IMG/VR virus record: IMGVR_UViG_2778261459_000001
Span: 1-26,517 of that record
Length of the DNA stretch: 26,517 nt
Source of the DNA: a virus
Taxonomy: Duplodnaviria; Heunggongvirae; Uroviricota; Caudoviricetes
Strand: one strand, 5' to 3'
This document shows, one piece after another, positions 5,915 through 26,517 of this stretch (within the stretch, counting starts at the first letter, position 1; each line of letters opens with the position of its first letter). A model generated the notes under the pieces. That model was not told the DNA's origin, ran no database searches, and saw only the letters and a list, made by a program, of their open reading frames with translations. The position numbers and the translations under genes are program-made.

Positions 5915-6400
5915 ATGGCTGGAACGGCGGGGCGTTCCGGGCGTCGCCCCAAGCCAACGGCGCGCAAGGCGCTGGCCGGAAACCCCGGCAAGCGAGCCCT
6001 GAACAAAGATGAACCTGTTTTTACGCCCATCAAAGGTGTTGAGCCACCGGAGTGGTTCGCTGAAGAAGATCTCCCTCTCGCCACGATCATGTGGCAACTG
6101 ACAACCAAAGAACTCTGCGGTCAGGGCCTGCTGTGCGTGACTGACCTGGCGGTACTTGAGCGGTGGTGTGTGGCCTATGAATTCTGGCGACGTGCCGTGA
6201 AAAATATTGCCAGACAGGGCAACACCATCACCGGTGCAATGGGCGGCATGGTCAAAAATCCGGAGCTGACCGCCAAAAAAGAACAGGAGTCCGAGATGAG
6301 CAGCACGGGGGCAATGCTCGGACTCGACCCCAGCAGCCGCCAGCGTCTGATTGGCCTGGCGGGGAAGAAGAAAGCCACTAACCCGTTTCTGACAATCTGA
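5915..6400 (+). CDS. terminase small subunit (P27-family-like)
   Basis: SD CAGGAG 8 nt before ATG 5915. N-terminal motif [29 protein letters not shown] is characteristic of this small-subunit family. Immediately upstream of the large subunit. Confidence 0.85.
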
Positions 6401-6413
6401 AAATCATCGAATC

Positions 6414-8147
6414 ATGAGCCGGAAATCTTACCCCAACGTAAATGCAGCCAATCAGTATGCCCGTGATGTCGTGCGCGGAAAGATTGTGGCCTGCCAGTTT
6501 GTGATTCAGGCCTGCCAGCGCCATCTTGATGACCTGATGGCGGAAAAAAGTAAGTCGTTTCGTTACCGCTTCGACAAGGACCTGGCTGAACGGGCCGCCA
6601 AATTTATTCAGCTGTTGCCGCATACCAAGGGTGAGTGGGCATTCAAACGGATGCCCATCACGCTGGAGCCGTGGCAGCTCTTTGTGATCTGCTGTGCGTT
6701 TGGCTGGGTCAATAAAGGTACCCGGCTGCGCCGCTTCCGGGAGGTGTATACCGAAATCCCCCGTAAGAACGGCAAATCGGCAATCTCTGCCGGTGTCGCC
6801 CTGTATTGTTTTGCCTGTGATAACGAGTTTGGCGCGGAAGTGTATTCCGGTGCCACGACAGAGAAACAGGCGTGGGAAGTCTTTCGCCCGGCGCGACTGA
6901 TGTGTAAACGCACACCCATGCTGACGGAAGCGTTCGGGATTGAGGTTAACGCCTCAAACATGAACCGTCCGGAGGATGGCGCGCGGTTTGAACCGCTGAT
7001 CGGTAACCCCGGTGATGGATCATCACCCCACTGTGCGGTGGTGGATGAATATCACGAGCACGCCACCGATGCGCTTTACACCACGATGCTTACCGGGATG
7101 GGGGCGCGACGTCAGCCACTGATGTGGGCCATTACTACTGCCGGGTACAACATTGAGGGGCCGTGCTACGACAAGCGGCGGGAAGTCATCGAGATGCTCA
7201 ACGGCTCGGTGCCTAACGATGAACTGTTCGGGATCATCTATACCGTTGATGAAGGTGACGACTGGACCGACCCGCAGGTGCTGGAAAAAGCCAATCCAAA
7301 TATTGGCGTGTCGGTTTATCGCGAATTTTTGTTAAGTCAGCAGCAGCGTGCGAAAAATAACGCCCGTCTGGCAAACGTCTTTAAAACAAAACACCTCAAT
7401 ATCTGGGTGTCGGCGCGTTCGGCGTATTTCAACCTGGTGAGCTGGCAGAGCTGCGAGGATAAATCACTGACCCTTGAGCAGTTCGAGGGGCAGCCGTGCA
7501 TTCTGGCCTTTGATCTGGCGCGTAAGCTGGATATGAACAGCATGGCGCGACTTTATACCCGCGAGATTGACGGTAAAACGCATTACTACAGTGTGGCCCC
7601 GCGCTTCTGGGTACCGTATGACACGGTGTACAGCGTCGAGAAAAATGAAGATAGACGGACAGCCGAACGCTTTCAGAAATGGGTGGAAATGGGCGTCCTG
7701 ACCGTTACCGATGGTGCAGAGGTGGATTATCGCTACATCCTCGAGGAGGCCAAAGCAGCGAACAAAATCAGCCCGGTCAGTGAGTCACCCATCGACCCCT
7801 TCGGGGCGACCGGGTTGTCACATGACCTTGCTGATGAAGACCTGAACCCCATCACTATCATTCAGAACTACACCAACATGTCCGACCCGATGAAAGAGCT
7901 GGAAGCGGCAATTGAATCGGGGCGCTTTCATCATGATGGCAATCCCATCATGACCTGGTGTATCGGCAACGTGGTCGGCAAAACCATTCCGGGTAACGAT
8001 GATGTGGTGAAGCCCGTCAAAGAGCAGGCGGAAAACAAAATCGATGGTGCAGTTGCGCTGATTATGGCGGTTGGCAGAGCCATGCTGTACGAGAAAGAAG
8101 ACACGTTGTCTGACCACATTGAGTCCTATGGGATCCGCTCGCTTTAA
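6414..8147 (+). CDS. terminase large subunit
   Basis: 577-aa ORF following terS; size, position and overall character match large terminase of HK97-like phages. Confidence 0.9.
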
Positions 8148-17772: not shown

Positions 17773-19101
17773 ATGACGTGGAAAGACAGACTTCAGGACG
17801 CGTCATTTCGCGGTGTGCCGTTTAAGGTTGAAGAAGAAAGTACGGGAACCGGTCGTCGTGTGGAAACGCACGAATACCCGAACCGCGACAAACCCTATAC
17901 CGAAGACCTGGGGAAAATCACTTTCCGCCCGTCCATCACGGCTTATGTGGTGGGAGATGACTGCTTTGACCAGCGCGATCGGCTGATTGACGCGCTGAAT
18001 AAACCCGGTCCCGGCACGCTTGTCCATCCGACTTACGGTGAGCTGAAAGTCTGTGTTGACGGAGAGGTTCGGGTCAGCACATCGAAGAGTGAAGGGCGTA
18101 TTGTCCGCTTTGACCTGAAGTTTGTCGAAGCGGGAGAACTCTCTTACCCCACTTCAGGTGCGGCGACGGCGCAGACGCTGATGTCATCCTGTTCTGCACT
18201 GGATGACTGCATCAGTGACAGCTTCAGCGGTTTCAGTATCGATGGCGTGGCGGATTTCGTGCAGAACGACGTTATTGGTAATGCCAGCATAATGCTGGGG
18301 TATGTTTCTGATGCGATGAAAGTGGTGGATTCTGCCGTATCGGATGCCGCCAGGCTGTTGCAGGGGGATATCTCGGTACTTCTGCCGCCGCCATCGTCAG
18401 GCAAAAATTTCGTTGAGCAGGTGCAGAAAATGTGGCGTACCGGGAAACGCCTTTATGGTAACGCCAGCGACCTGGTCACCATGATCAAAACGCTTTCCGG
18501 TGTCAGCCTCGGCAGTGATCTGCAACCGCGCGGCGTCTGGAAAACGGACAGTAAAACCACCGCTACGGCGACGCAGCAGCGTAACGTGGTTGCCAGCACC
18601 CTTCGTACGACCGCAATCAGCGAAGCGGCGTATGCCGTCACCCGATTGCCTGCGCCAACAACTTCCGCGGTGATGCAGAATGCCGCAGTGGGGCAGGCAA
18701 CAACAGCTGCACAGAGCACCGGCTGGCCTTCCGTCACGCATCCGGCACTGAACAATGCACCGGCGGTGAAAAACACGGTTGACCTGCCGACGTGGGAAGA
18801 ACTGACTGACATTCGCGACACACTGAATACGGCAATTGATAAGGAGTTGTCCCGTACAACCAGTGATGCGCTGTTTCTGGCGCTGCGCCGGGTGAAAGCA
18901 GATCTGAATGCGGATATCAACACGCGCCTTGAACAGTCTGCACGGATCATTCAGCGCACACCGGATGAGGTTTTACCCGCGCTGGTGCTGGCGGCGACCT
19001 GGTTTGATAACGCGGCGCGTGACGCGGACATTATCCGGCGTAATGCCATTACGCATCCCGGCTTTGTGCCGGTGATCCCTCTGAAGGTGCCAGTGCAATG
19101 A
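17773..19101 (+). CDS. Mu gpN-like DNA circularization / tail protein
   Basis: GGAG 6 nt before ATG 17773 (MTWKDRLQDASFRGVPFKVEEE...); first gene after the tape measure gene as in Mu-like tails. Confidence 0.8.
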   Translation: MTWKDRLQDASFRGVPFKVEEESTGTGRRVETHEYPNRDKPYTEDLGKITFRPSITAYVVGDDCFDQRDRLIDALNKPGPGTLVHPTYGELKVCVDGEVRVSTSKSEGRIVRFDLKFVEAGELSYPTSGAATAQTLMSSCSALDDCISDSFSGFSIDGVADFVQNDVIGNASIMLGYVSDAMKVVDSAVSDAARLLQGDISVLLPPPSSGKNFVEQVQKMWRTGKRLYGNASDLVTMIKTLSGVSLGSDLQPRGVWKTDSKTTATATQQRNVVASTLRTTAISEAAYAVTRLPAPTTSAVMQNAAVGQATTAAQSTGWPSVTHPALNNAPAVKNTVDLPTWEELTDIRDTLNTAIDKELSRTTSDALFLALRRVKADLNADINTRLEQSARIIQRTPDEVLPALVLAATWFDNAARDADIIRRNAITHPGFVPVIPLKVPVQ

Positions 19102-20177
19102 ACGACAATGTCACGCTACGGGTAAATGGCCGGGAGTGGAATGGCTGGACATCGGTGCGCATCGGTGCCGGTATTGAACGGCTGGCGCGGGATTTCAGTG
19201 TGGAGATCACCCGCCAGTGGCCGGGTGATGAGGGTATCACCACGCTTCAGCCGCGCATTAAAAACGGTTCAAAAGTGGAGGTGCTGATTGGTGATGAGCT
19301 GGTGATCACCGGCTGGGTGGAGGCGACGCCCGTTCGTTACGATGCCCGTTCGGTCAGCACCGGTATTGCCGGACGCAGTCTGACCGCTGACCTGATTGAC
19401 TGTGCAGCCGAACCGACACAGTTTAACGGACGATCGCTGGTACAGATAGCGCAGGCGCTTGCTGCGCCTTTCGGCATTGAGGTGGTGAACAACGGTGCGC
19501 CGTCGGGTGTTATTCCTGACGTCCAGCCCGATCACGGCGAAACGGTGATTGAGGTGATCAACAAAATACTCGGTCAGCAGCAGGCACTGGCTTACGACGA
19601 CCCGCACGGCAGGCTGGTGATTGGCGGTATTGGCTCAACGCGGGCACATACCGCGCTGGTACTCGGGGAAAACATCCTTTCCTGTGATACGGAGAAGAGT
19701 ATCCGGGAGCGGTTTTCAGTTTACCAGGTGGCGGGGCAGCGTGCCGGAAACGACGATGATTTCGGTGAGGCCACCACCACCGCGCTGCGGGCCCGCACAG
19801 AGGACGCATTTATTGCCCGTTACCGTCCGATGTATATCAGGCAGACAGGGCAGGCCACGGGGGCAGGCTGTATTGCGCGTGCTGACTTTGAAGCCCGGCA
19901 ACGGGCGGCGCGGACGGATGAAACCACCTATGTGGTGCAGGGCTGGCGACAGGGTAACGGTACGCTGTGGCAGCCCAACCAGCGGGTGATTGTCTTTGAT
20001 CCGGTCTGTGGTTTCGACAATACCGAACTGCTTGTTTCGGAAGTCACGTTTACTCAGGACCAGAACGGCACCCTGACGGAAATCCGTGTCGGCCCGCCTG
20101 ATGCTTATCTGCCTGAACCCGAAGCCCCCGGCGCGCGGAAAAAGAAAAAAGCCAGAGTACAGGAGGACCCGTTCTGA
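19098..20177 (+). CDS. Mu gpP-like tail/baseplate hub protein
   Basis: 359 aa, ATGA overlap with the upstream gene; position and size match. Confidence 0.8.
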   Translation: MNDNVTLRVNGREWNGWTSVRIGAGIERLARDFSVEITRQWPGDEGITTLQPRIKNGSKVEVLIGDELVITGWVEATPVRYDARSVSTGIAGRSLTADLIDCAAEPTQFNGRSLVQIAQALAAPFGIEVVNNGAPSGVIPDVQPDHGETVIEVINKILGQQQALAYDDPHGRLVIGGIGSTRAHTALVLGENILSCDTEKSIRERFSVYQVAGQRAGNDDDFGEATTTALRARTEDAFIARYRPMYIRQTGQATGAGCIARADFEARQRAARTDETTYVVQGWRQGNGTLWQPNQRVIVFDPVCGFDNTELLVSEVTFTQDQNGTLTEIRVGPPDAYLPEPEAPGARKKKKARVQEDPF

Positions 20178-20725
20178 TGAGGACGATTGAAGCCATGCAG
20201 CGACAACTCCTCGGCCTGATTGGGCGGGCCGTGGTGAAAAGCATCAGTGCCGCCACGAAATGTCAGACCGTGGATGTGTTCCTGATTGCCGGTGAACCCA
20301 AAGCCGGGGTTGAACATCTTGAACCCTACGGTTTTACCGCAAGGGCAAACAGCGGTGCGGAAGCGGTGGTGTTGTTTCCGGATGGCGACCGTTCTCATGC
20401 GGTGGTTGTTACGGTGTCGGACCGTCGCTACCGCCTGAAAGGGCTGCAGACGGGTGAGGTGGCTGTCTATGACGATCAGGGGCAGTCCGTGACGCTGACC
20501 CGGGAGGGGATCGTGGTGGACGGTGCAGGTAAAACGATCACGTTTCGCAATGCACCTGAAGCACGTTTTGAAATGGACCTGGAAGTGACAGGACAGGTGA
20601 AAGACCTGTGCGACTCCGGCGGCACCACCATGTCAGCGATGCGGCTTGCCTATAACGGGCATAGTCACAGAGAGAACGGTCAGGGCAGTAACACCGACAA
20701 ACCGGATAAAGCGATGGAGGCATGA
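20177..20725 (+). CDS. baseplate assembly protein V (spike, Mu gp45-like)
   Basis: 182 aa, start overlaps the upstream stop; fits gpV-type proteins by position and size. Confidence 0.8.
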   Translation: MRTIEAMQRQLLGLIGRAVVKSISAATKCQTVDVFLIAGEPKAGVEHLEPYGFTARANSGAEAVVLFPDGDRSHAVVVTVSDRRYRLKGLQTGEVAVYDDQGQSVTLTREGIVVDGAGKTITFRNAPEARFEMDLEVTGQVKDLCDSGGTTMSAMRLAYNGHSHRENGQGSNTDKPDKAMEA

Positions 20726-21150
20726 TGGAACTGTGGCTGACGGTGAACGGTAAACGCACCTGCGCCAGCGCACCGCTGGATCCGCTGACCCGCGCCGTGG
20801 TGATTTCCCTGTTTACCTGGCGGCGGGCGGAGCCTGATGACAACGCCGACGTCCCGATGGGATGGTGGGGGGATACCTGGCCTGCGGTACAGAATGACCG
20901 TTACGGCTCCCGACTGTGGCTGCTTCAGCGCAGCAAACTGACCAATCAGCTGGTGCAGACGGTAAGGGGGTATATCCGCGAATGCCTGCAATGGATGATT
21001 GATGATGGCGTGGTGTCCCGTATTGATCTGGATATCCGCCGCACCGGGATTAATGAACTGGGTAACAGTATCACTCTCTGGCGTCGTGACGGACCGGTAA
21101 TGATTTCTTTTGATGATCTGTGGAGTGCGATAACGCATGGCGGACAGTGA
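20722..21150 (+). CDS. baseplate protein (Mu gp46 / gpW-gp25-like)
   Basis: 142 aa, ATGA overlap; between the V-like and J-like genes. Confidence 0.75.
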   Translation: MMELWLTVNGKRTCASAPLDPLTRAVVISLFTWRRAEPDDNADVPMGWWGDTWPAVQNDRYGSRLWLLQRSKLTNQLVQTVRGYIRECLQWMIDDGVVSRIDLDIRRTGINELGNSITLWRRDGPVMISFDDLWSAITHGGQ

Positions 21151-22195
21151 ATTTCAGCGCCCGACGCTGGCAGAAAATATCAGTATGCTCCGTAACGATT
21201 TATTCGCCAGGCTGGACGTCAGCGACACGCTCCGGCGCATGGATGAAGACGTGCGGGCAAAGGTGTATGCGGCGGCGCTGCATACGGTTTACGGTTACAT
21301 CGATTATCTGGCAATGAACATGCTGCCTGACCTGTGCGATGAGTCCTGGCTGGCGCGACATGCTGCGATGAAACGGTGTCCGCGCAAGGGGGCCACGGCT
21401 GCCAGCGGGTATATGCGCTGGGAAGGTGTCAGCGATGGCCTGAAGGTGACTGCCGGGAGCGTGATTCAGCGCGATGACCTGGTTCAGTACACGGCAACTG
21501 CTGATGCAACCAGCTCCGGTGGTGTCCTGCGCGTGCCGATCACTTGCTCAAGTGCAGGCGCGGTCGGTAACGCTGACGACGGTACGGCATTAATCCTGGT
21601 CACGCCGGTTAATGGTCTGCCCTCTTCCGGCGAGGCAGATACCCTGACAGGTGGATTTGATACTGAAGAGCTGGAAACGTGGCGCGCCCGCGTCATTGAG
21701 CGGTATTACTGGACGCCTCAGGGCGGGGCTGACGGGGACTATGTCGTCTGGGCTAAAGAAGTGCCCGGCATTACCCGCGCATGGACATACCGACACTGGA
21801 TGGGAACGGGGACTGTCGGTGTGATGATTGCCAGCAGTGACCTGATTAACCCCATTCCGGAAGAATCAACGGAAACGGCGGCAAGACAACATATCGAGCC
21901 ACTGGCCCCGGTGGCAGGCTCTGATTTGTATGTATTCAGGCCGGTGGCGCACAAAGTGGATTTTCATATCCGCGTGACGCCGGACACACCGGAAATACGG
22001 GCTGCCATCACCGCGGAGTTGCGTTCATTCCTGCTGCGTGATGGTTATCCGCAGGGAGAGCTTAAGGTATCGCGTATCAGTGAAGCGATTTCCGGTGCGA
22101 ACGGGGAATACAGCCATCAGTTGCTTGCACCGGCGGACAATATCTCCATTGCAAAAAATGAACTGGCGGTACTGGGGACGATTTCATGGACGTGA
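21137..22195 (+). CDS. baseplate J-like protein (Mu gp47-like)
   Basis: 352 aa; canonical position and size. Confidence 0.85.
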
Positions 22196-22770
22196 CAAAC
22201 GATGATTATATCCGTCTGTTGTCGGCACTGCTGCCCCCCGGTCCGGCATGGTCAGCCAGCGATCCGGCGATTGCCGGTGCGGCACCTTCATTAACCCGTG
22301 TTCATCAGCGTGCGGATGCCCTGATGCGGGAGCTGGATCCGCGCACCACCACCGAACTGATAAATCGCTGGGAGCGTCTGTGCGGCCTGCCGGATGAATG
22401 CATTCCGGCGGGAACGCAGACCCTTCGCCAGCGTCAGCAACGGCTGGATGCGAAGGTTAACCTGGCGGGCGGTATCAATGAGGATTTTTACCTTGCTCAG
22501 CTTGCTGCTCTGGGCAGACCAGACGCCACCATCACGCGATACGACAAAAGCACTTTCACCTGCTCATCGGCCTGTACTGACGCGGTGAATGCGCAGGAAT
22601 GGCGGTATTACTGGCAGGTCAACATGCCAGCCGCCACCAACACCACCTGGATGACATGTGGCGATCCCTGTGATTCCGCACTGCGTATCTGGGGCGACAC
22701 CGTTGTCGAGTGCGTGCTTAACAAACTCTGCCCTTCGCATACCTACGTAATTTTTAAATATCCGGAGTAA
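22186..22770 (+). CDS. Mu gp48-like tail protein (DUF2313-like)
   Basis: 194 aa between the baseplate J-like and tail fiber genes. Confidence 0.75.
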
Positions 22771-22773
22771 TCC

Positions 22774-23787
22774 ATGCATCGTATAGACACGAAAACCGCG
22801 CAGAAGGATAAGTTCGGCGCGGGTAAGAACGGTTTTACCCGTGGTAACCCCCAGACCGGCACACCTGCCACCGATCTGGATGATGACTACTTTGACATGT
22901 TGCAGGAGGAACTTTGCAGCGTGGTGGAGGCATCCGGTGCCAGCCTGGAGAAGGGGCGGCACGACCAGTTACTTACCGCGCTTCGTGCGCTGCTGTTAAG
23001 CCGCAAGAATCCGTTTGGCGATATCAAATCGGATGGCACGGTGAAAACGGCTCTCGAAAACCTTGGTTTATCAGACGTTTTACATAAGGGAAATTTTGGT
23101 GTCGGGAGTAGGCTGCAAGGTAGTGCAGCCGGGAATAGCCATGTCGGTGGATTCATGTATGAACCATATCAGGCGAACAATCTTTACCCGCTAAGTGTGG
23201 CTTTAATGCAGGCAGCAGGCCCGACATCGACAGAATGGGCGCAGCTGGCTGTTTCATATGGTGGGGCATTCAGAGCTTTCCTTGGGCGACAGACTTATAA
23301 TGGAAATCCTGAAATCAGTGAGTTGTACCATGACCAGCGTAAGCCGTCTGCGTCGGATGTTGGTGCCCAACCTCTGAATGCAACTCTCACCACTCTTAGT
23401 GGAAAAGATGCGGCAGGATTAAGGAGCGTCCTAGGGCTTGGAACAACAGCCACAAGAAACGTAGGTACGGGAGCGTCACAAATACCTGATATGAGTTCGT
23501 TTTTAAGCGGATCTACAGCATCAGCTTTTTGGTACAAACTTCCTGGTGGCATGGTGGTGATGGGGGGTAATGCATCTGGAATCGCCTCTGGAACTGCAGG
23601 TAATGCGGTCTTCTTCCCAGTGCCATTCCCAAATGTTTGCTCAAGCGTTGTCGTGACATTAGTCAGCAACGGGTTATATGCCGACACAGTCTCGTTTAAT
23701 ACATATATCCCTGGAACTGACCGTTTTAACGTTTATACGAATACAAGCGGCACGTACGCTATTTATTACCTGGCGTTTGGGAGTTGA
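22774..23787 (+). CDS. tail fiber protein with conserved N-terminal anchor and divergent, lower-GC C-terminal domain
   Basis: 337 aa. N-terminus [55 protein letters not shown]... is the conserved baseplate-attachment region of this fiber family. DNA composition becomes AT-richer from about 23040 onward. Confidence 0.8.
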
Positions 23788-23788
23788 T

Positions 23789-24205
23789 ATGAACAATTAC
23801 GTATGGTCAGCATTACATGTTTCATTTTTCCCTAAGGCGATGTTGCAAGATTATGAATCTGCCGGATGGAATCTTTCCGATGTGGTGGATGTTGTTGATG
23901 ACATTTTTCAAACATACAGATCAATGCCACCAGAAGGTAAAATTCTTGGGGTTGTTGATGGCATGCCTGCATGGATTGACAAGCCGCCAGTGCCAAATAG
24001 CGTGTTGCTTTCAGACGAACTTGCGCGGCTTGCATCAGAATATAAAAATGACAGAGTTCAATTGAATGACGCATACGTTGCGGCAATGGTAAGCGATGGT
24101 CCATTAGAGCAAACTAAGCAGCAGGCGGTGAGGGATCAAATTGTTCAAAGAAAATCTCAGTACACAGCAGATATAGCTGCAGCAAAATTAAAATATCCCA
24201 TTTAA
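23789..24205 (+). CDS. tail fiber assembly protein (Tfa/Caudo_TAP-like)
   Basis: From ATG 23789 (MNNYVWSALHVSFF...): motifs ...AGW..., PPEGK and DGMPAWIDKPP typical of tail fiber assembly chaperones; directly follows the fiber gene. Confidence 0.7.
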   Translation: MNNYVWSALHVSFFPKAMLQDYESAGWNLSDVVDVVDDIFQTYRSMPPEGKILGVVDGMPAWIDKPPVPNSVLLSDELARLASEYKNDRVQLNDAYVAAMVSDGPLEQTKQQAVRDQIVQRKSQYTADIAAAKLKYPI

Positions 24206-24215
24206 GGTGGACATC

Positions 24216-24380
24216 ATGGAAACACAATCAAACGAAGAACAAAAACAGAGCCAGCAACAGCAGGATTCTACCGTAAAATTCTGTCCGATATGTGGCTCAA
24301 CAATGCATCAGCAAGATTATCTGAATGGGAAATGGTGGTTTTGTGATGATGAAGAATGCGGGTTTTTTGAGCCCGTCTAA
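24216..24380 (+). CDS. small zinc-ribbon protein (54 aa, CPICG...x16...CDDEEC)
   Basis: AAGGTGG SD 5 nt before ATG 24216. METQSNEEQKQSQQQQDSTVKFCPICGSTMHQQDYLNGKWWFCDDEECGFFEPV has four Cys in two pairs. Below the track cut-off; followed by a terminator. Confidence 0.5.
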   Translation: METQSNEEQKQSQQQQDSTVKFCPICGSTMHQQDYLNGKWWFCDDEECGFFEPV

Positions 24381-24402
24381 AGTATTTGTTTGCAGGAATA
24401 AA

Positions 24403-24433
24403 AGCCCTCTCTGGAGGGCTCATATTTATTTTG
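24403..24433. terminator. bidirectional terminator (AGCCCTC-TCTG-GAGGGCT flanked by T-runs on both strands)
   Basis: Between the convergent zinc-ribbon gene (+) and acyltransferase gene (-); followed by CATATTTATTTTG on the plus strand and TTTATTCC on the minus strand. Confidence 0.5.
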
Positions 24434-25508
24434 CGTATTTCTTTCTAAACCCAAGAAATGGCTTTTCAATCAACTCAAAACATATCTTAGAAAAGATAAG
24501 AATTGCAGGTAGTAAAATCAAAAAATTAATGACAGCATTAACATTATCATTGTCGATAAACCTCGGAACTCCAAATGTTTTATGGAATGAGTAAAGAACC
24601 ACACCATGCAATATATATTCAGAAAAGCTTACCTCACCAAGTTTAGATAATCCATTATCTATAATGGCAGGTATTTTTATGCTTGACGATAAGTAAGTAA
24701 ATACAAAAATACCCCACATGCAAGCCTCCAGATATGATAAAGAACTTACATATGGTGTTGGAATGTACCATAAACCCTCAGATCTAAGTGTTAAAAGAGA
24801 AAAGAAGACAATTGCAGAACTGGCGATGATAAAGATCGGATTAGCGAATTTATCCTTATGGTTTATATATAGATATCCAAACACCATCCCAATTAATAGC
24901 TGATCAAATCGACCAAGCATTGTTAAGTAGTAATAATGATTGTTCAGATATGAATCCGACCCTAATTCCCCACCATAGATTGTAACGATCATGGTTCTCC
25001 AGGCAAGCCAAAAAAGAGACAGATACACAATATACTTCACACCATATCTGTTAAGAAAAAGAGCTAGGAAAGGAAATATTAAGTAAAATTGAAATTCTAC
25101 TGCTATAGTCCACGTTTGCCCGAAATGAGCCAGCAACGGTGATGTTTGCAAATTCGAGAAAAGGAACAAGGATAAAGCATCAGAAAATGTGGCAGTACCT
25201 CTAGATAGAGACATGGCGGTAATCCATGCTACAGAAAGGAGTGGGAAGATGCGAATAAATCTATTGAAGATAAAAGGCTTATAAGAAATATCCTTTTTTC
25301 CGCCATTCGATATGATGGTGAATAGAAATCCACTAAGCACCAAAAATAGCGTAACTCCAGTATCACCAGCAAGCATGAAATTTATAAATGGATTGTTCGA
25401 TTTCTTTCCTCCGAACGCCGTATAAGAATGAACAAAAACAACAAATGTTGCTGCAAAAAAACGAAGGTGGTCAATCCTTGACAGGTATTGTGAGTTTAGA
25501 CTTTTCAT
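24426..25508 (-). CDS. integral membrane acyltransferase, family 3 (Oac/OafA-like O-acetyltransferase)
   Basis: 360 aa, about 10 predicted TM segments. N-terminal signature RIDHLRFFAATFVVFVHS (Arg...His motif of the acyltransferase-3 family). Gene is strongly AT-rich relative to the flanking phage genes and is divergently oriented. Confidence 0.85.
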   Translation of the reverse strand: MKSLNSQYLSRIDHLRFFAATFVVFVHSYTAFGGKKSNNPFINFMLAGDTGVTLFLVLSGFLFTIISNGGKKDISYKPFIFNRFIRIFPLLSVAWITAMSLSRGTATFSDALSLFLFSNLQTSPLLAHFGQTWTIAVEFQFYLIFPFLALFLNRYGVKYIVYLSLFWLAWRTMIVTIYGGELGSDSYLNNHYYYLTMLGRFDQLLIGMVFGYLYINHKDKFANPIFIIASSAIVFFSLLTLRSEGLWYIPTPYVSSLSYLEACMWGIFVFTYLSSSIKIPAIIDNGLSKLGEVSFSEYILHGVVLYSFHKTFGVPRFIDNDNVNAVINFLILLPAILIFSKICFELIEKPFLGFRKKYAK

Positions 25509-25628
25509 CTTTATCCACTTGAAAATGAAAAAATATTAGCATGTAAGACGATGTCGCGCCACGGATCATTAGTCGTAAAAAGCACGAGTTTTTTGTTGCA
25601 TGCACTGATTGACGCCATCGATCAATAA

Positions 25629-25648
25629 TACTGTATGCACATACAGCT
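25629..25648 (+). promoter_or_regulatory. LexA (SOS) box TACTGTATGCACATACAGCT
   Basis: CTGT-N8-ACAG palindrome (CTGTATGCACATACAG) matching the E. coli SOS-box consensus TACTGT(AT)4ACAGTA, about 20 nt upstream of the UmuD'-like start; GGAGGTGG SD at 25655-25662. Confidence 0.6.
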
Positions 25649-25665
25649 TACATTGGAGGTGGTCC

Positions 25666-25953
25666 ATGGGGTTCCCGTCGCCAGCGGCAGACCACATTGA
25701 AGAGCACATATCACTCGATAAGCGCCTTATCGCACATCCTTCTTCCACGTATATGATGATATCCGGAACGACATACCTTCGAGCCGGAATCATGAAAGGA
25801 GCCATGCTCATCGTCGACTCATCGCTGACACCAAAAGATGGCTTCCTGCTTGTCTGTGCGGTTGATGGTGAGTTCAGGATCATGCGCTACAGGACACATC
25901 CTCAACCTTGCCTTGAAAACCCTGAAAATGGGAGGGGGGAGCCGTTACTGTAA
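25666..25953 (+). CDS. UmuD'-like (HumD-like) protein, S24 peptidase fold with substituted catalytic dyad; C-terminally short
   Basis: From ATG 25666: [38 protein letters not shown]...[22 protein letters not shown]... aligns to E. coli UmuD from Gly25 ([37 protein letters not shown]...LLIVDS...AAVDGEF). The UmuD GDSM Ser position is Thr (GTTY) and the Lys position (VKKL) is Met/Arg (IMRY). About 20 C-terminal residues are missing relative to UmuD'. Confidence 0.65.
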   Translation: [95 protein letters not shown]

Positions 25954-26027
25954 GTATCCCGCATAATCGTGCCATTCATATTTAGAGATCATCCGGCATA
26001 ATCAATCTGGCAACAAAGGAGATCGCT

Positions 26028-26169
26028 ACGCATAAAGCCCGTTTTACTGAGCATCAGATCATCGCTGTGATTAAGTCAGTTGAAGCCAGACGAACCGTTA
26101 AAGATGTCTGCCGGGAGGCCGGTAACTCTGAAGCCACCTACTACAACTGGAAGTCCAGATACGGCGGCA
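26028..26169 (+). mobile_element. IS3-family (IS407-group-like) transposase OrfA 5' fragment, start codon degenerate (ACG), truncated after the HTH
   Basis: AAGGAG SD, then ACG where ATG is expected. Translation (T)[46 protein letters not shown] matches the OrfA HTH motif of IS3-family elements from memory (MKKRFTEQQII...SFYTWRAKFGGME). Similarity ends abruptly at about 26170. Confidence 0.5.
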
Positions 26170-26256
26170 TGGAAGACATATCGGGTATTGCTGAACCGGG
26201 TTGATACATCAGTAGCACCGAATATTGAGTGGCCTGCAGAACCAGGCACAATGTAA
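26164..26256 (+). pseudogene. tail fiber assembly protein (tfa) 3' remnant
   Basis: Frame +1 translates to ...[30 protein letters not shown], the conserved C-terminal signature of Tfa proteins (lambda Tfa ends ...[29 protein letters not shown]). No corresponding N-terminal part upstream. Confidence 0.6.
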
Positions 26257-26517
26257 GCGAAAAATGAAAACCGTAGCACGTCGTATGCAAGATCGTGCGC
26301 GGCTGGCTGGTGAACTTCCGATAGTGCGAGTATTGAATTATTTCCAACTGTTATCGATTTTGCGTATTTTTTGCATGAGAGGATTTTTACCTCCTCCCAC
26401 CGATCCTCCATGGCTTTACGCCAGTGTCTCTGGTCTGCTATGTGCCAGGAGCAGCCATTGCTAAGTCCATCCTGTATTGTGCAGGTCAGCTCGTTTTTAA
26501 AGAGTCCGGCCATCATC

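Follow-up and report, generated by a model that had tools for sequence, protein, structure and literature searches.

The tail fibre of this prophage is likely a chimera, in which the constant anchor of its own lineage was joined at a relic crossover site to an imported receptor-binding end with its own chaperone, probably brought in as part of a larger block. We observed a composition step, homology breaks, a crossover-like site, a characteristic domain content and patterns of co-occurrence among relatives, from which we infer the direction and number of events. The window (the whole 26,517-nt stretch of viral DNA that was analysed) covers the late region of a temperate, SfV-like myovirus prophage of E. 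coli with a Mu-type tail, integrated at thrW. Positions 19000-23069 are 97.8% identical to SfV and carry the Pfam domains Mu Gp48 and Baseplate_J. No tRNA lies within the window; in a 99.9%-identical genome the integrase adjoins tRNA-Thr/proA, and the 56-bp thrW att repeat was found there, only past the window end, 1.2 kb beyond it. The fibre features are:

22774 to 23787, + strand: fibre gene, 337 aa, intact, a likely two-part chimera
22774 to 23070, + strand: fibre codons 1-99, constant baseplate-attachment part of the StfP / Mu S N-terminal type (DNA identity, GC3, PHROG)
22999 to 23069, + strand: end segment of the constant part, common to two otherwise unrelated fibre N-termini (identity to L005, 611R5 and SfV)
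23071 to 23787, + strand: fibre codons 100-337, likely imported shaft and predicted receptor-binding tip (homology break, GC3 of 0.41, Pfam)

Fibre codons 1-99 share 96-98% DNA identity with SfV, SfI, SfII, SfIV, L002 and L006. PHROG tail-fibre families match residues 1-102, residues 37-102 align to residues 41-112 of the Mu fibre S (PDB 8ju3), and the PGAP label on this part is 'StfP, partial'. Homology to SfV, SfI, SfII, SfIV and two SfV-like prophages stops exactly at 23069, where identity to these lineage mates drops from ~97% to random within a few bases; DNA homology to SfV-type phages is absent from codons 100-337. Across the relatives, the ...KTALENLGL joint leads into at least four unrelated C-termini. 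The C-terminus, unrelated beyond 23069, probably differs in origin from the lineage of the N-terminus. PGAP splits the intact 337-aa fibre into a 'StfP pseudogene' and a separate gp53-like protein, which is a mis-annotation.

On the other side of the joint, positions 23000-23830 (830 bp) are 100% identical to L005, a SEN34-like prophage with an unrelated baseplate and an unrelated fibre N-terminus. The sequence-only reading had proposed horizontal replacement of the receptor-binding part and its chaperone, and this block, together with the homology stop and the alternative C-termini, bears the proposal out. The segment 22999-23069 is 100% identical to L005, 97% identical to vB_EcoM-611R5 and ~100% identical to SfV, and, judged by these identities, a crossover would have to lie within it. 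SEN34-like tails are found in both L005 and vB_EcoM-611R5.

Base composition changes at the same place. The five baseplate genes (19098-22770) have a third-codon-position GC (GC3) of 0.62-0.65, and fibre codons 1-99, at 0.64, are like them; GC3 drops to 0.41 in codons 100-337, then to 0.345 in the gene for the 138-aa chaperone and 0.32 in that for the acyltransferase. Across 1761 codons (19098-24380), the maximum-likelihood GC3 change point is nt 23046, with a 2-log-unit support interval of 22971-23079 that overlaps the 22999-23069 segment. By this codon-position analysis composition is clearly not uniform (LLR = 39.3; 500 permutations averaged 2.7 and reached at most 10.1). The fibre gene analysed alone places the change at codon 90 (support 64-101), and the earlier description of a GC-rich fibre start of ~85 codons, AT-richer from ~23040, was therefore accurate. 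Its further claim that the AT-rich DNA runs through the end of the Tfa gene held insofar as that gene is AT-richer, but the tract does not end at 24205; it continues, down to 35% GC, through 25508.

Raw GC shifts more gradually than GC3, and segmentation puts its strongest break at 23480, because the Gly/Ala/Ser-rich shaft holds GC1 and GC2 high. We discarded 23480 as an estimate of the junction for this reason, GC1 and GC2 being kept up by the Gly/Ala-rich shaft. The gradual raw GC and its late break would nevertheless be expected had there been no transfer, the low GC reflecting amino-acid composition or the relaxed or AT-biased evolution, inside one lineage, of host-range genes that change quickly; so would the presence of the same GC3 step at fibre codon 99 of SfV and SfII, as a standing family property. 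We regard this account as extremely improbable, since the effect falls at third codon positions while GC2 rises where GC3 drops, homology to lineage mates collapses within a few bases, and the 830-bp block is identical in a prophage with an unrelated tail. The identity profiles already contradict it. What the step in SfV and SfII does mean is that it marks a family-wide module boundary and not a recent event: it dates from the origin of that boundary, not from the exchange seen here, and is not specific evidence of a swap.

Composition leaves the direction of transfer ambiguous. The cassette GC3 of 0.41 is close to that of SEN34-like baseplate genes (0.44-0.47) and points to the SEN34-like side, yet the SEN34-like fibre carries the SfV/e14-type constant-end segment. 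An origin of the cassette within the SEN34-like lineage was considered on the strength of the GC3 match and found not decisive, the SEN34-like fibre having the same constant-end segment and pix site.

The distal fibre matches Pfam gp53-like_C (PF21882) at residues 255-336 (nt 23536-23781; model positions 1-83 of 84) with 40.4 bits vs. a gathering cutoff of 24.9, and its database relatives carry the same domain. This C-part is found behind at least five other N-terminal types in databases, and it weakly matches Mu S' and the foot of the R1-pyocin fibre. The tip is predicted from sequence to be receptor-binding.

The joint itself coincides with a recognisable recombination site:

23051 to 23076, − strand: Din-family (Pin) crossover-site-like 26-mer, GTCTGATAAACCAAGGTTTTCGAGAG, encoding ENLGL on the + strand

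This 26-mer matches e14 pixL (reference sequence from PMC3241671, Table 3) at 22/26 positions. Its constant-side half-site, the central AA and the first five bases of the variable side (GGTTT, + strand) are identical to pixL, and all four mismatches sit in the variable-side half-site. SfV, SfII, L006 and vB_EcoM-611R5 have a 26/26 pixL match at the same position, and none of 200 shuffled versions of the window gave any site at ≥22/26. vB_EcoM-611R5 has, in addition, a 26/26 pixR and an invertase, in the layout Sc-pixL-Sv-tfa-tfa'-Sv'-pixR-invertase, where the site bounds an invertible host-range segment on its left side.

A pixL-like site exactly at the joint, complete systems in relatives and the pin 3' flank at 26259-26464 are all consistent with an active Pin/Gin-type switch, in which the break would be the border of a segment that still flips. 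We consider this highly unlikely: no other site at ≥19/26 to pix, gix, hix or cix occurs in the window or in L001, a degenerate dix pattern search of the window gave no further match, and no serine invertase ORF or annotation was found in 23000-26517 or in L001. There are also no inverted Sv'/tfa' ORFs, the sole other tfa sequence being a + strand relic at 26176-26256, and the variable-side half-site bears its four mismatches. With a single site and no invertase, the arrangement is fixed, and the joint looks like the frozen relic of a Pin/Gin-type invertible fibre segment.

The gene that follows the fibre encodes the probable chaperone:

23789 to 24205, + strand: 138-aa probable fibre chaperone, with a Tfa-like N-domain (~residues 1-65) and a non-canonical two-helix C-domain (residues 70-135) (PHROG 188)

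It is intact and conserved and starts 2 nt after the fibre stop. The protein matches PHROG 188 'tail fiber assembly' (E = 1.7e-15) over residues 1-98 only and gives no Pfam Caudo_TAP (PF02413) match even at E ≤ 10, as the sequence-only reading had anticipated in calling the Tfa C-terminus divergent. SfV Tfa and L006 Tfa match Caudo_TAP at 1e-26 and 1e-29, respectively, and the close relatives P0014 and P0021 match its positions 2-78 only. The chaperone is 26% identical to SfV Tfa and 34% identical to Tfa' of vB_EcoM-611R5 (E = 4e-16). In the natural chimeras P0009 and P0011 this N-part is combined with a canonical C-part, and among the 319 representative clusters that match the chaperone, the N and C halves occur independently. 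An AF2 model reached a pLDDT of 87; a PDB sequence search with the chaperone returned nothing meaningful, and neither the fibre, the chaperone nor the acyltransferase has an NCBIfam model. Tfa proteins are modular, with a variable N-domain that binds the fibre tip and a helical, trimerising C-domain (PMC9608196). The chaperone N-domain here co-segregates with the fibre tip, and the 138-aa protein probably acts as the cognate chaperone of this fibre. Where canonical Tfa proteins have their C-terminal domain, it carries an alternative helical hairpin, which is conserved.

Between the chaperone and the tfa relic lie:

24207 to 24380, + strand: small Cys4 zinc-ribbon ORF, 54-57 aa, that moves with the fibre cassette (block common to L004)
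24402 to 24421, either strand: hairpin resembling a bidirectional terminator, which separates the fibre operon from the convergent acyltransferase gene (detected on both strands)
24426 to 25508, − strand: Acyl_transf_3 membrane acyltransferase, 35% GC (Pfam PF01757, 2.6e-30)
25609 to 25953, + strand: truncated gene for an S24 peptidase of the HumD/UmuD type (Pfam Peptidase_S24; NCBIfam HumD at 135 bits, covering model positions 1-92 of 129)
26022 to 26175, + strand: IS3-family orfA fragment, the right end of the probable imported block (NCBIfam transpos_IS3; PGAP partial transposase)

The zinc-ribbon ORF lies inside the block shared with L004, whose homology ends at 24380; its Zn-ribbon Pfam matches are all sub-threshold, and L005 has a 34%-identical homologue at the same position. 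SfV and SfII have an annotated terminator at the position equivalent to the hairpin. The acyltransferase, in a block common to L008 and L009, occupies the O-antigen-modification position between the fibre genes and att, where SfV has gtrABV. It matches PHROG 3333 'O-acetyltransferase' (1.4e-44), which makes it a probable O-antigen acetylase moron with a putative role in serotype conversion; an acyltransferase shared with SfII was ruled out, as there is no significant similarity. We would give little credence to a joint proposal in which the orphan site serves as a trans substrate of Pin-type invertases (of e14 or other prophages), so that fibre parts are swapped between prophages as a 'distributed shufflon', and the 138-aa protein and the zinc ribbon form a distinct two-component assembly system for long gp53-like fibres.

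At the right end of the window, remnants of an older arrangement remain:

26176 to 26256, + strand: relic 3' end of a canonical tfa gene (Caudo_TAP)
26259 to 26464, + strand: native right-arm DNA of SfV-like prophages, with the 3' end of a pin-type invertase and its flank (L002, L006)

The ORF piece 26080-26256 matches Caudo_TAP positions 104-130 of 131 (E = 7.5e-11), and the relic aligns to the 3' ends of intact canonical tfa genes. A relic at 26164-26256, as the earlier reading had it, is thus genuine, but its Tfa-derived DNA starts at ~26176, because the 'AAWK' codons come from IS3-family orfA nucleotides that continue as IS in L008. The relic is fused to the IS fragment at a junction with short microhomology (TGGAA); in L008 the IS runs on past 26175, where the window turns to Tfa sequence. 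Positions 26259-26464 are 93.5-93.7% identical to L002 7625-7830, directly after a recombinase remnant, and to L006 7638-7838, and bases 26259-26302 match annotated pinE genes.

The relic and the DNA downstream of it could belong instead to a different, older and decayed prophage that adjoins this one, in which case the relic would have no bearing on the history of the fibre. Consistent with this, an IS fragment directly borders the relic, the DNA beyond the relic is also similar to lambda b-region and Qin sequences (ydfV, flxA), lambdoid prophages contain comparable scars of a tfa 3' end, and L007 has the IS-tfa junction at another chromosomal locus, diverging 13 nt before the relic stop. We find an older neighbour unlikely, as the thrW att repeat lies ~1.2 kb past the window end, so that the relic is within the att-bounded element; moreover, 26259-26464 is collinear with right-arm DNA that in L002 and L006 lies downstream of the fibre, tfa and invertase remnants, and the att-proximal DNA matches the SfV attP region. 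A genuine relic inside the att boundaries implies that the prophage once had a canonical fibre/Tfa module, since displaced. A search for a complete canonical tfa that still adjoins the DNA downstream of the relic found none. L011 was the best contiguous case for a source of the displaced cassette but was rejected, its tfa being itself truncated and the element a lambdoid prophage.

The exchanged block is larger than the fibre tip and chaperone and is itself a mosaic. It extends to at least 24380 and probably to 26175: sharing with the window reaches 24380 in L004, 26175 in L008 and 26243 in L007. We propose that a block of ~23070-26175, comprising the fibre C-part, chaperone, zinc-ribbon ORF, acyltransferase, HumD fragment and IS3 fragment, was imported, most likely from an argW-type SfV-like prophage such as L008. 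The left exchange would have been homologous recombination within tail and constant DNA that both elements share, with its end in 22999-23069; no left crossover was pinpointed for the large-block import. At the right junction, illegitimate recombination would have joined the IS fragment to the 3' end of a canonical tfa already present in the prophage. Of the resident module, Sv, the invertase and most of tfa would thereby have been lost, and what remains at 26176-26464 would be the 3' relic of tfa with the 3' flank of pin. One replacement of this kind, with one homologous and one illegitimate junction, explains the relic, and the successive fibre-cassette exchanges suggested earlier, although possible, are not required.

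The locus may equally have been built stepwise, by a tip swap, recombination in the chaperone, insertion of the moron and an IS-mediated deletion, with no single block import, and we give this about an even chance. The fine-scale mosaic argues for it, as the window equals L004 to ~23480, diverging in the chaperone, equals L005 to ~23830, and departs from L008 at 23570-23830 alone; in L004 a gtr cluster follows 24380 immediately, at the position of the acyltransferase, and L009 has a truncated acyltransferase adjoining gtr genes. Stepwise assembly is, however, compatible with the block import that we favour: the whole of 22000-26175 is contiguous in L008 at 97.9% identity, and a single import can still account for the final step into the thrW lineage.

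The locus offers a clean example of host-range retooling in a temperate phage, with the anchor kept and the shaft, tip and chaperone swapped at a fixed joint. It gives precise module borders for engineering fibres on SfV- or Mu-type tails (nt 23069/23070, and near codon 65-70 between the N and C parts of the chaperone), indicates a widespread Tfa variant with a different C-domain that the Pfam model misses, and shows that the fibre cassette repeatedly moves together with O-antigen-modification genes.

Among known systems, SfV, SfI, SfII and SfIV are close, being 96-98% identical in the tail and baseplate genes as well as fibre codons 1-99, with the same thrW att core and the same layout of fibre, chaperone, terminator and convergent O-antigen-modification gene. 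Their fibre is 216 aa long, with a short tip only 38% identical over the last ~117 residues, and their Tfa is canonical Caudo_TAP, whereas the chaperone here is not. Relative to them, the window adds a ~120-aa fibre module, a different tip allele and the zinc-ribbon ORF, and has an unrelated acyltransferase in place of gtrABV.

Like the Din-invertase segments (e14 P/Pin, Mu G/Gin, P1 C/Cin, p15B Min), the window has a constant N-part and a variable C-part with Tfa joined at a 26-bp site, which shares its reading frame (ENLGL) with e14 pixL, and it retains a tfa remnant and pin 3' flank downstream. In contrast to those segments, it has a single site with a degenerate variable half-site, no invertase and no inverted Sv'/tfa', and a long gp53-like module, accompanied by a non-canonical chaperone, makes up its variable part. 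As for Tfa/Caudo_TAP proteins (Mu U, lambda Tfa, P2 G, Pam3 gp25), the chaperone gene lies directly 3' of the fibre and encodes a small β/α N-domain homologous to Tfa N-parts. A C-terminal two-helix element, as in the 138-aa protein, is present in TfaMu and gp25 (PMC9608196). Canonical Tfa proteins end in a conserved ...W..YR..L..VD...I.WP; the C-domain of the 138-aa protein is unrelated and does not match the Pfam model.

Comparisons of P2, Mu, P1 and lambda fibres, attributed to Haggard-Ljungquist and colleagues in 1992 and to Sandmeier and colleagues in 1992 and 1994, reportedly described mosaicism by exchange of the C-terminal part together with Tfa. The window is alike in its conserved anchor, its exchangeable distal parts with a cognate chaperone, and its joint at a conserved linker motif. 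It does not differ in principle and leaves current understanding unchanged: the locus is a clear case of well-known phage host-range mosaicism, a further instance whose partners are SfV-like and SEN34-like lineages.

Baseplate genes at 19098-22770 are 97-98% identical to those of Shigella phage SfV and its relatives, and 22700-26517 is 99.9% identical to E. coli S1-INA-02-A (NZ_CP145663.1), where the prophage sits at thrW, adjoining proA, with its integrase beside the tRNA. Because of this integration, and because the thrW 3' region recurs as a 56-bp copy ~1.2 kb past the right end of the window in NZ_CP145663.1, the following features all fall inside one att-bounded element.

19098-22770: Mu-type baseplate genes (P/gp44-like hub, gp45/V, gp46, gp47/J, gp48/YmfQ)
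22774-23787, plus strand: fibre ORF, 337 aa, uninterrupted
23789-24205, plus strand: 138-aa ORF, putative fibre chaperone
24207-24380, plus strand: small Cys4 zinc-ribbon ORF, 54-57 aa, directly after the chaperone gene
24402-24421, both strands: bidirectional terminator-like hairpin between the convergent zinc-ribbon ORF and acyltransferase gene
24426-25508, minus strand: Acyl_transf_3 gene, 35% GC, PHROG 'O-acetyltransferase', convergent with the fibre operon
25609-25953, plus strand: HumD/UmuD-like S24 peptidase gene, truncated (covers positions 1-92 of the 129 in the model)
26022-26175, plus strand: IS3-family orfA fragment
26176-26256, plus strand: canonical tfa 3' end

As far as nt 23069, the window is 96-98% identical in DNA to SfV, SfI, SfII, SfIV and two SfV-like prophages (L002 and L006); beyond that point identity is at background level. 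Across the relatives, the same ...KTALENLGL precedes four unrelated C-terminal parts: a short gp53-like tip in SfV and SfII, a collar-type part in L006 and phage vB_EcoM-611R5, a glycine-rich part in L002 and a long gp53-like part in the window. In a prophage of E. coli MS 119-7 (L005) that has a SEN34-like baseplate, the window's C-part also follows an unrelated N-terminus; L005 is 100% identical to the window over ~23000-23830 and unrelated on both flanks. In databases, relatives of fibre residues 100-337 are joined to at least five other N-terminal types, a P2-like PF12571 anchor among them. Since composition is not uniform and the C-terminus is not collinear with the lineage of the N-terminus, the horizontal swap of the distal fibre proposed in the sequence-only reading is supported, with four corrections, to the meaning of the composition step, the joint, the size and mosaicism of the block, and the chaperone C-terminus. 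The 71 bp before the joint (22999-23069) are common to SfV-like and SEN34-like fibre N-parts, overlap the support interval of the composition break, and provide a homology patch where exchange can occur.

The five baseplate genes have a third-codon-position GC (GC3) of 0.62-0.65, and fibre codons 1-99 stay at that level (0.64); GC3 is lower over fibre codons 100-337 (0.41), the 138-aa gene (0.345) and the acyltransferase gene (0.32). A likelihood change-point scan over 1761 codons placed the break at nt 23046 (support 22971-23079), close to the ~23040 first read by eye; its score (LLR 39.3, against a maximum of 10.1 among 500 permutations) is far above chance. Raw GC declines more gradually, with its strongest break at 23480, because the shaft, rich in Gly, Ala and Ser, retains high GC1 and GC2. 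The AT-rich tract had been bounded at 23040-24205; the start holds, whereas AT-richness persists well beyond 24205. As controls, SfV and SfII show the same GC3 step at the same codon (fibre N-part 0.66, C-part 0.41), with tfa at 0.32-0.33 and gtr or acyltransferase genes at 0.29-0.38. Thus, the step is real but not specific to this swap: across the family, it is the point where the conserved virion module gives way to a variable host-range and moron region, and alone it is no proof of recent alteration in this particular prophage.

On the minus strand, 23051-23076 reads GTCTGATAAACCAAGGTTTTCGAGAG, a 22/26 match to e14 pixL, TTCTCCCAAACCAAGGTTTTCGAGAG (tabulated in PMC3241671). Identity is complete over the constant-side half-site, the two central bases (AA) and the next five bases on the variable side; all four mismatches lie on the variable side, exactly where homology breaks. 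A site at the same position scores 26/26 in SfV, SfII, L006 and vB_EcoM-611R5 and 25/26 in L002, while 200 shuffles of the window gave none of at least 22/26. The joint is a fossil Pin-type crossover site. The system is complete in vB_EcoM-611R5, which has an invertase gene and a 26/26 pixR besides the fibre, tfa and the inverted tfa' and Sv', whereas the window holds this single site, with no second pix site, invertase or inverted gene set; its locus derives from a Pin/Gin-type switch but is frozen, not active.

Fibre residues 37-102 align with residues 41-112 of Mu fibre S, and hits to PHROG fibre families cover residues 1-102, which fits a baseplate-anchor role for the N-terminal part. The 216-aa SfV fibre lacks any equivalent of residues ~100-219: its sequence after ENLGLG aligns to the second LGLG of the window's fibre at ~residue 220 and thence to the end (38% identity). 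By this alignment, residues ~100-219 behave like an inserted module. This second linker (SVLGLG, residues ~218-223) is encoded at ~23425-23445, where no pix-like DNA site (at least 19/26) was present. Pfam gp53-like_C scores above threshold over residues 255-336, which also show a weak resemblance (E 0.03) to the foot of the R1-pyocin fibre, and LPS or O-antigen is a reasonable guess for the putative receptor. PGAP/RefSeq annotates two features in the gene (6075-7088 of the NZ_CP145663.1 locus), a 'StfP pseudogene, missing C-terminus' and, apart from it, a 'gp53-like domain-containing protein'; the ORF is continuous, and the split is an artefact of chimeric architecture. Proteins of 337 aa and this fibre type are common in databases.

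The 138-aa protein is Tfa-like over its first ~100 residues (PHROG 188, E 1.7e-15), with 26% identity to SfV Tfa and 34% (E 4e-16) to Tfa' of vB_EcoM-611R5, whose gene adjoins the small alternative Sv' fibre fragment. Divergence of its C-terminus, as first claimed, is real: Pfam Caudo_TAP gave no match at E<=10, yet SfV and L006 Tfa match easily. The divergent end is a conserved alternative module rather than decay, because it recurs in many full-length matches among 319 related clusters (of 1.84 billion representatives), because others of these clusters match residues 1-75 only, or 61-138 only behind different N-parts, and because close full-length relatives match Caudo_TAP in the first half only. 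It is also kept in Salmonella and Edwardsiella homologues, and two natural proteins (P0009 and P0011) join the same N-terminal 69 residues to a canonical C-terminus. An AF2 model (pLDDT 87) comprises a small beta/alpha domain (residues 1-65) and long helices (70-101 and 105-135), an architecture like that of TfaMu and Pam3 gp25, in which a variable N-domain binds the fibre and a helical C-domain trimerises (PMC9608196). Structure searches gave nothing informative.

The imported block is larger than first noted and internally mosaic. One argW prophage (L004) is shared with the window to 24380, where a gtr cluster begins; it is 100% identical to ~23480, then 62-90% across the chaperone. Another (L008) is contiguous over 22000-26175 at 97.9%, after which its IS continues, with gtrCBA, intS and argW beyond; it differs only at 23570-23830 (85-93% identity) and is otherwise near-identical. 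That interval, the fibre tip plus the first ~15 chaperone codons, is the same in the window as in L005, which is 100% identical to ~23830 and ~50% past ~23980. By these identity patterns, the tip and ~15 codons travel as one and the chaperone's remainder travels separately, which suggests a co-transferred sub-module of tip and chaperone N-part.

Downstream, the zinc-ribbon ORF shows conserved synteny with fibre cassettes of the gp53-like kind, because a homologue with only 34% identity occupies the same position in L005. The hairpin lies where terminators are annotated in SfV and SfII. In the acyltransferase slot, SfV has gtrABV and SfII an unrelated acyltransferase; L004 has a gtr cluster, a prophage at zinT (L007) the window-type acyltransferase, and L008 and a further relative (L009) both. 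Because of this alternation, the Acyl_transf_3 gene is probably a lysogenic-conversion moron. A HumD-like fragment also lies between acyltransferase and intS in L005.

The tfa relic had been placed at 26164-26256; its canonical 3' end is confirmed, but it starts at 26176. The IS switches after ...GGCATGGAAG (26175) into ...ACATATCGGGTATTGCTGAACCGG..., and compared with a truncated tfa in a lambdoid prophage (L011, GCCTGGAAAAAGTATCGGGTATTGCTGAACCGT) this right junction is illegitimate, with a few bases of microhomology (TGGAA in the orfA/tfa fusion, 26022-26176). 'AAWK' is read from IS-derived bases, and it is by coincidence that the fusion retains this reading in the Tfa frame. The zinT prophage, which lies at a third chromosomal locus, has the same IS/tfa junction and diverges inside the relic; recombination has gone on at tfa 3' ends. 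After the relic stop, 26259-26464 is 93.5-93.7% identical to DNA just past the invertase remnant in L002 and L006, and 26259-26302 matches annotated pinE genes. The att boundaries and this collinearity with L002 and L006 make it less likely that the relic came from a tandem prophage. The simplest reading is that the thrW lineage formerly had a canonical Sv/tfa/invertase module, that a block from an argW-type relative would have replaced the DNA from the pix site to the tfa 3' end, and that later deletions would have removed the invertase. The ~45-bp sequence at 26259-26302 is present in two copies in L006, one following tfa/tfa' and the other a GIY-YIG moron (6609-6655 and 7638-7680), and deletion between such repeats could have brought a tfa end against the pin 3' flank. 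At its right end (26422-26517) the window is 94-98% identical to ydfV from the Qin prophage, and in the matching genome flxA follows, inside the SfV-like prophage.

Exchange of the distal fibre and its chaperone at such joints has long been known from P2, Mu, P1, lambda and e14, and the fibre swap described here is a further case of this exchange.
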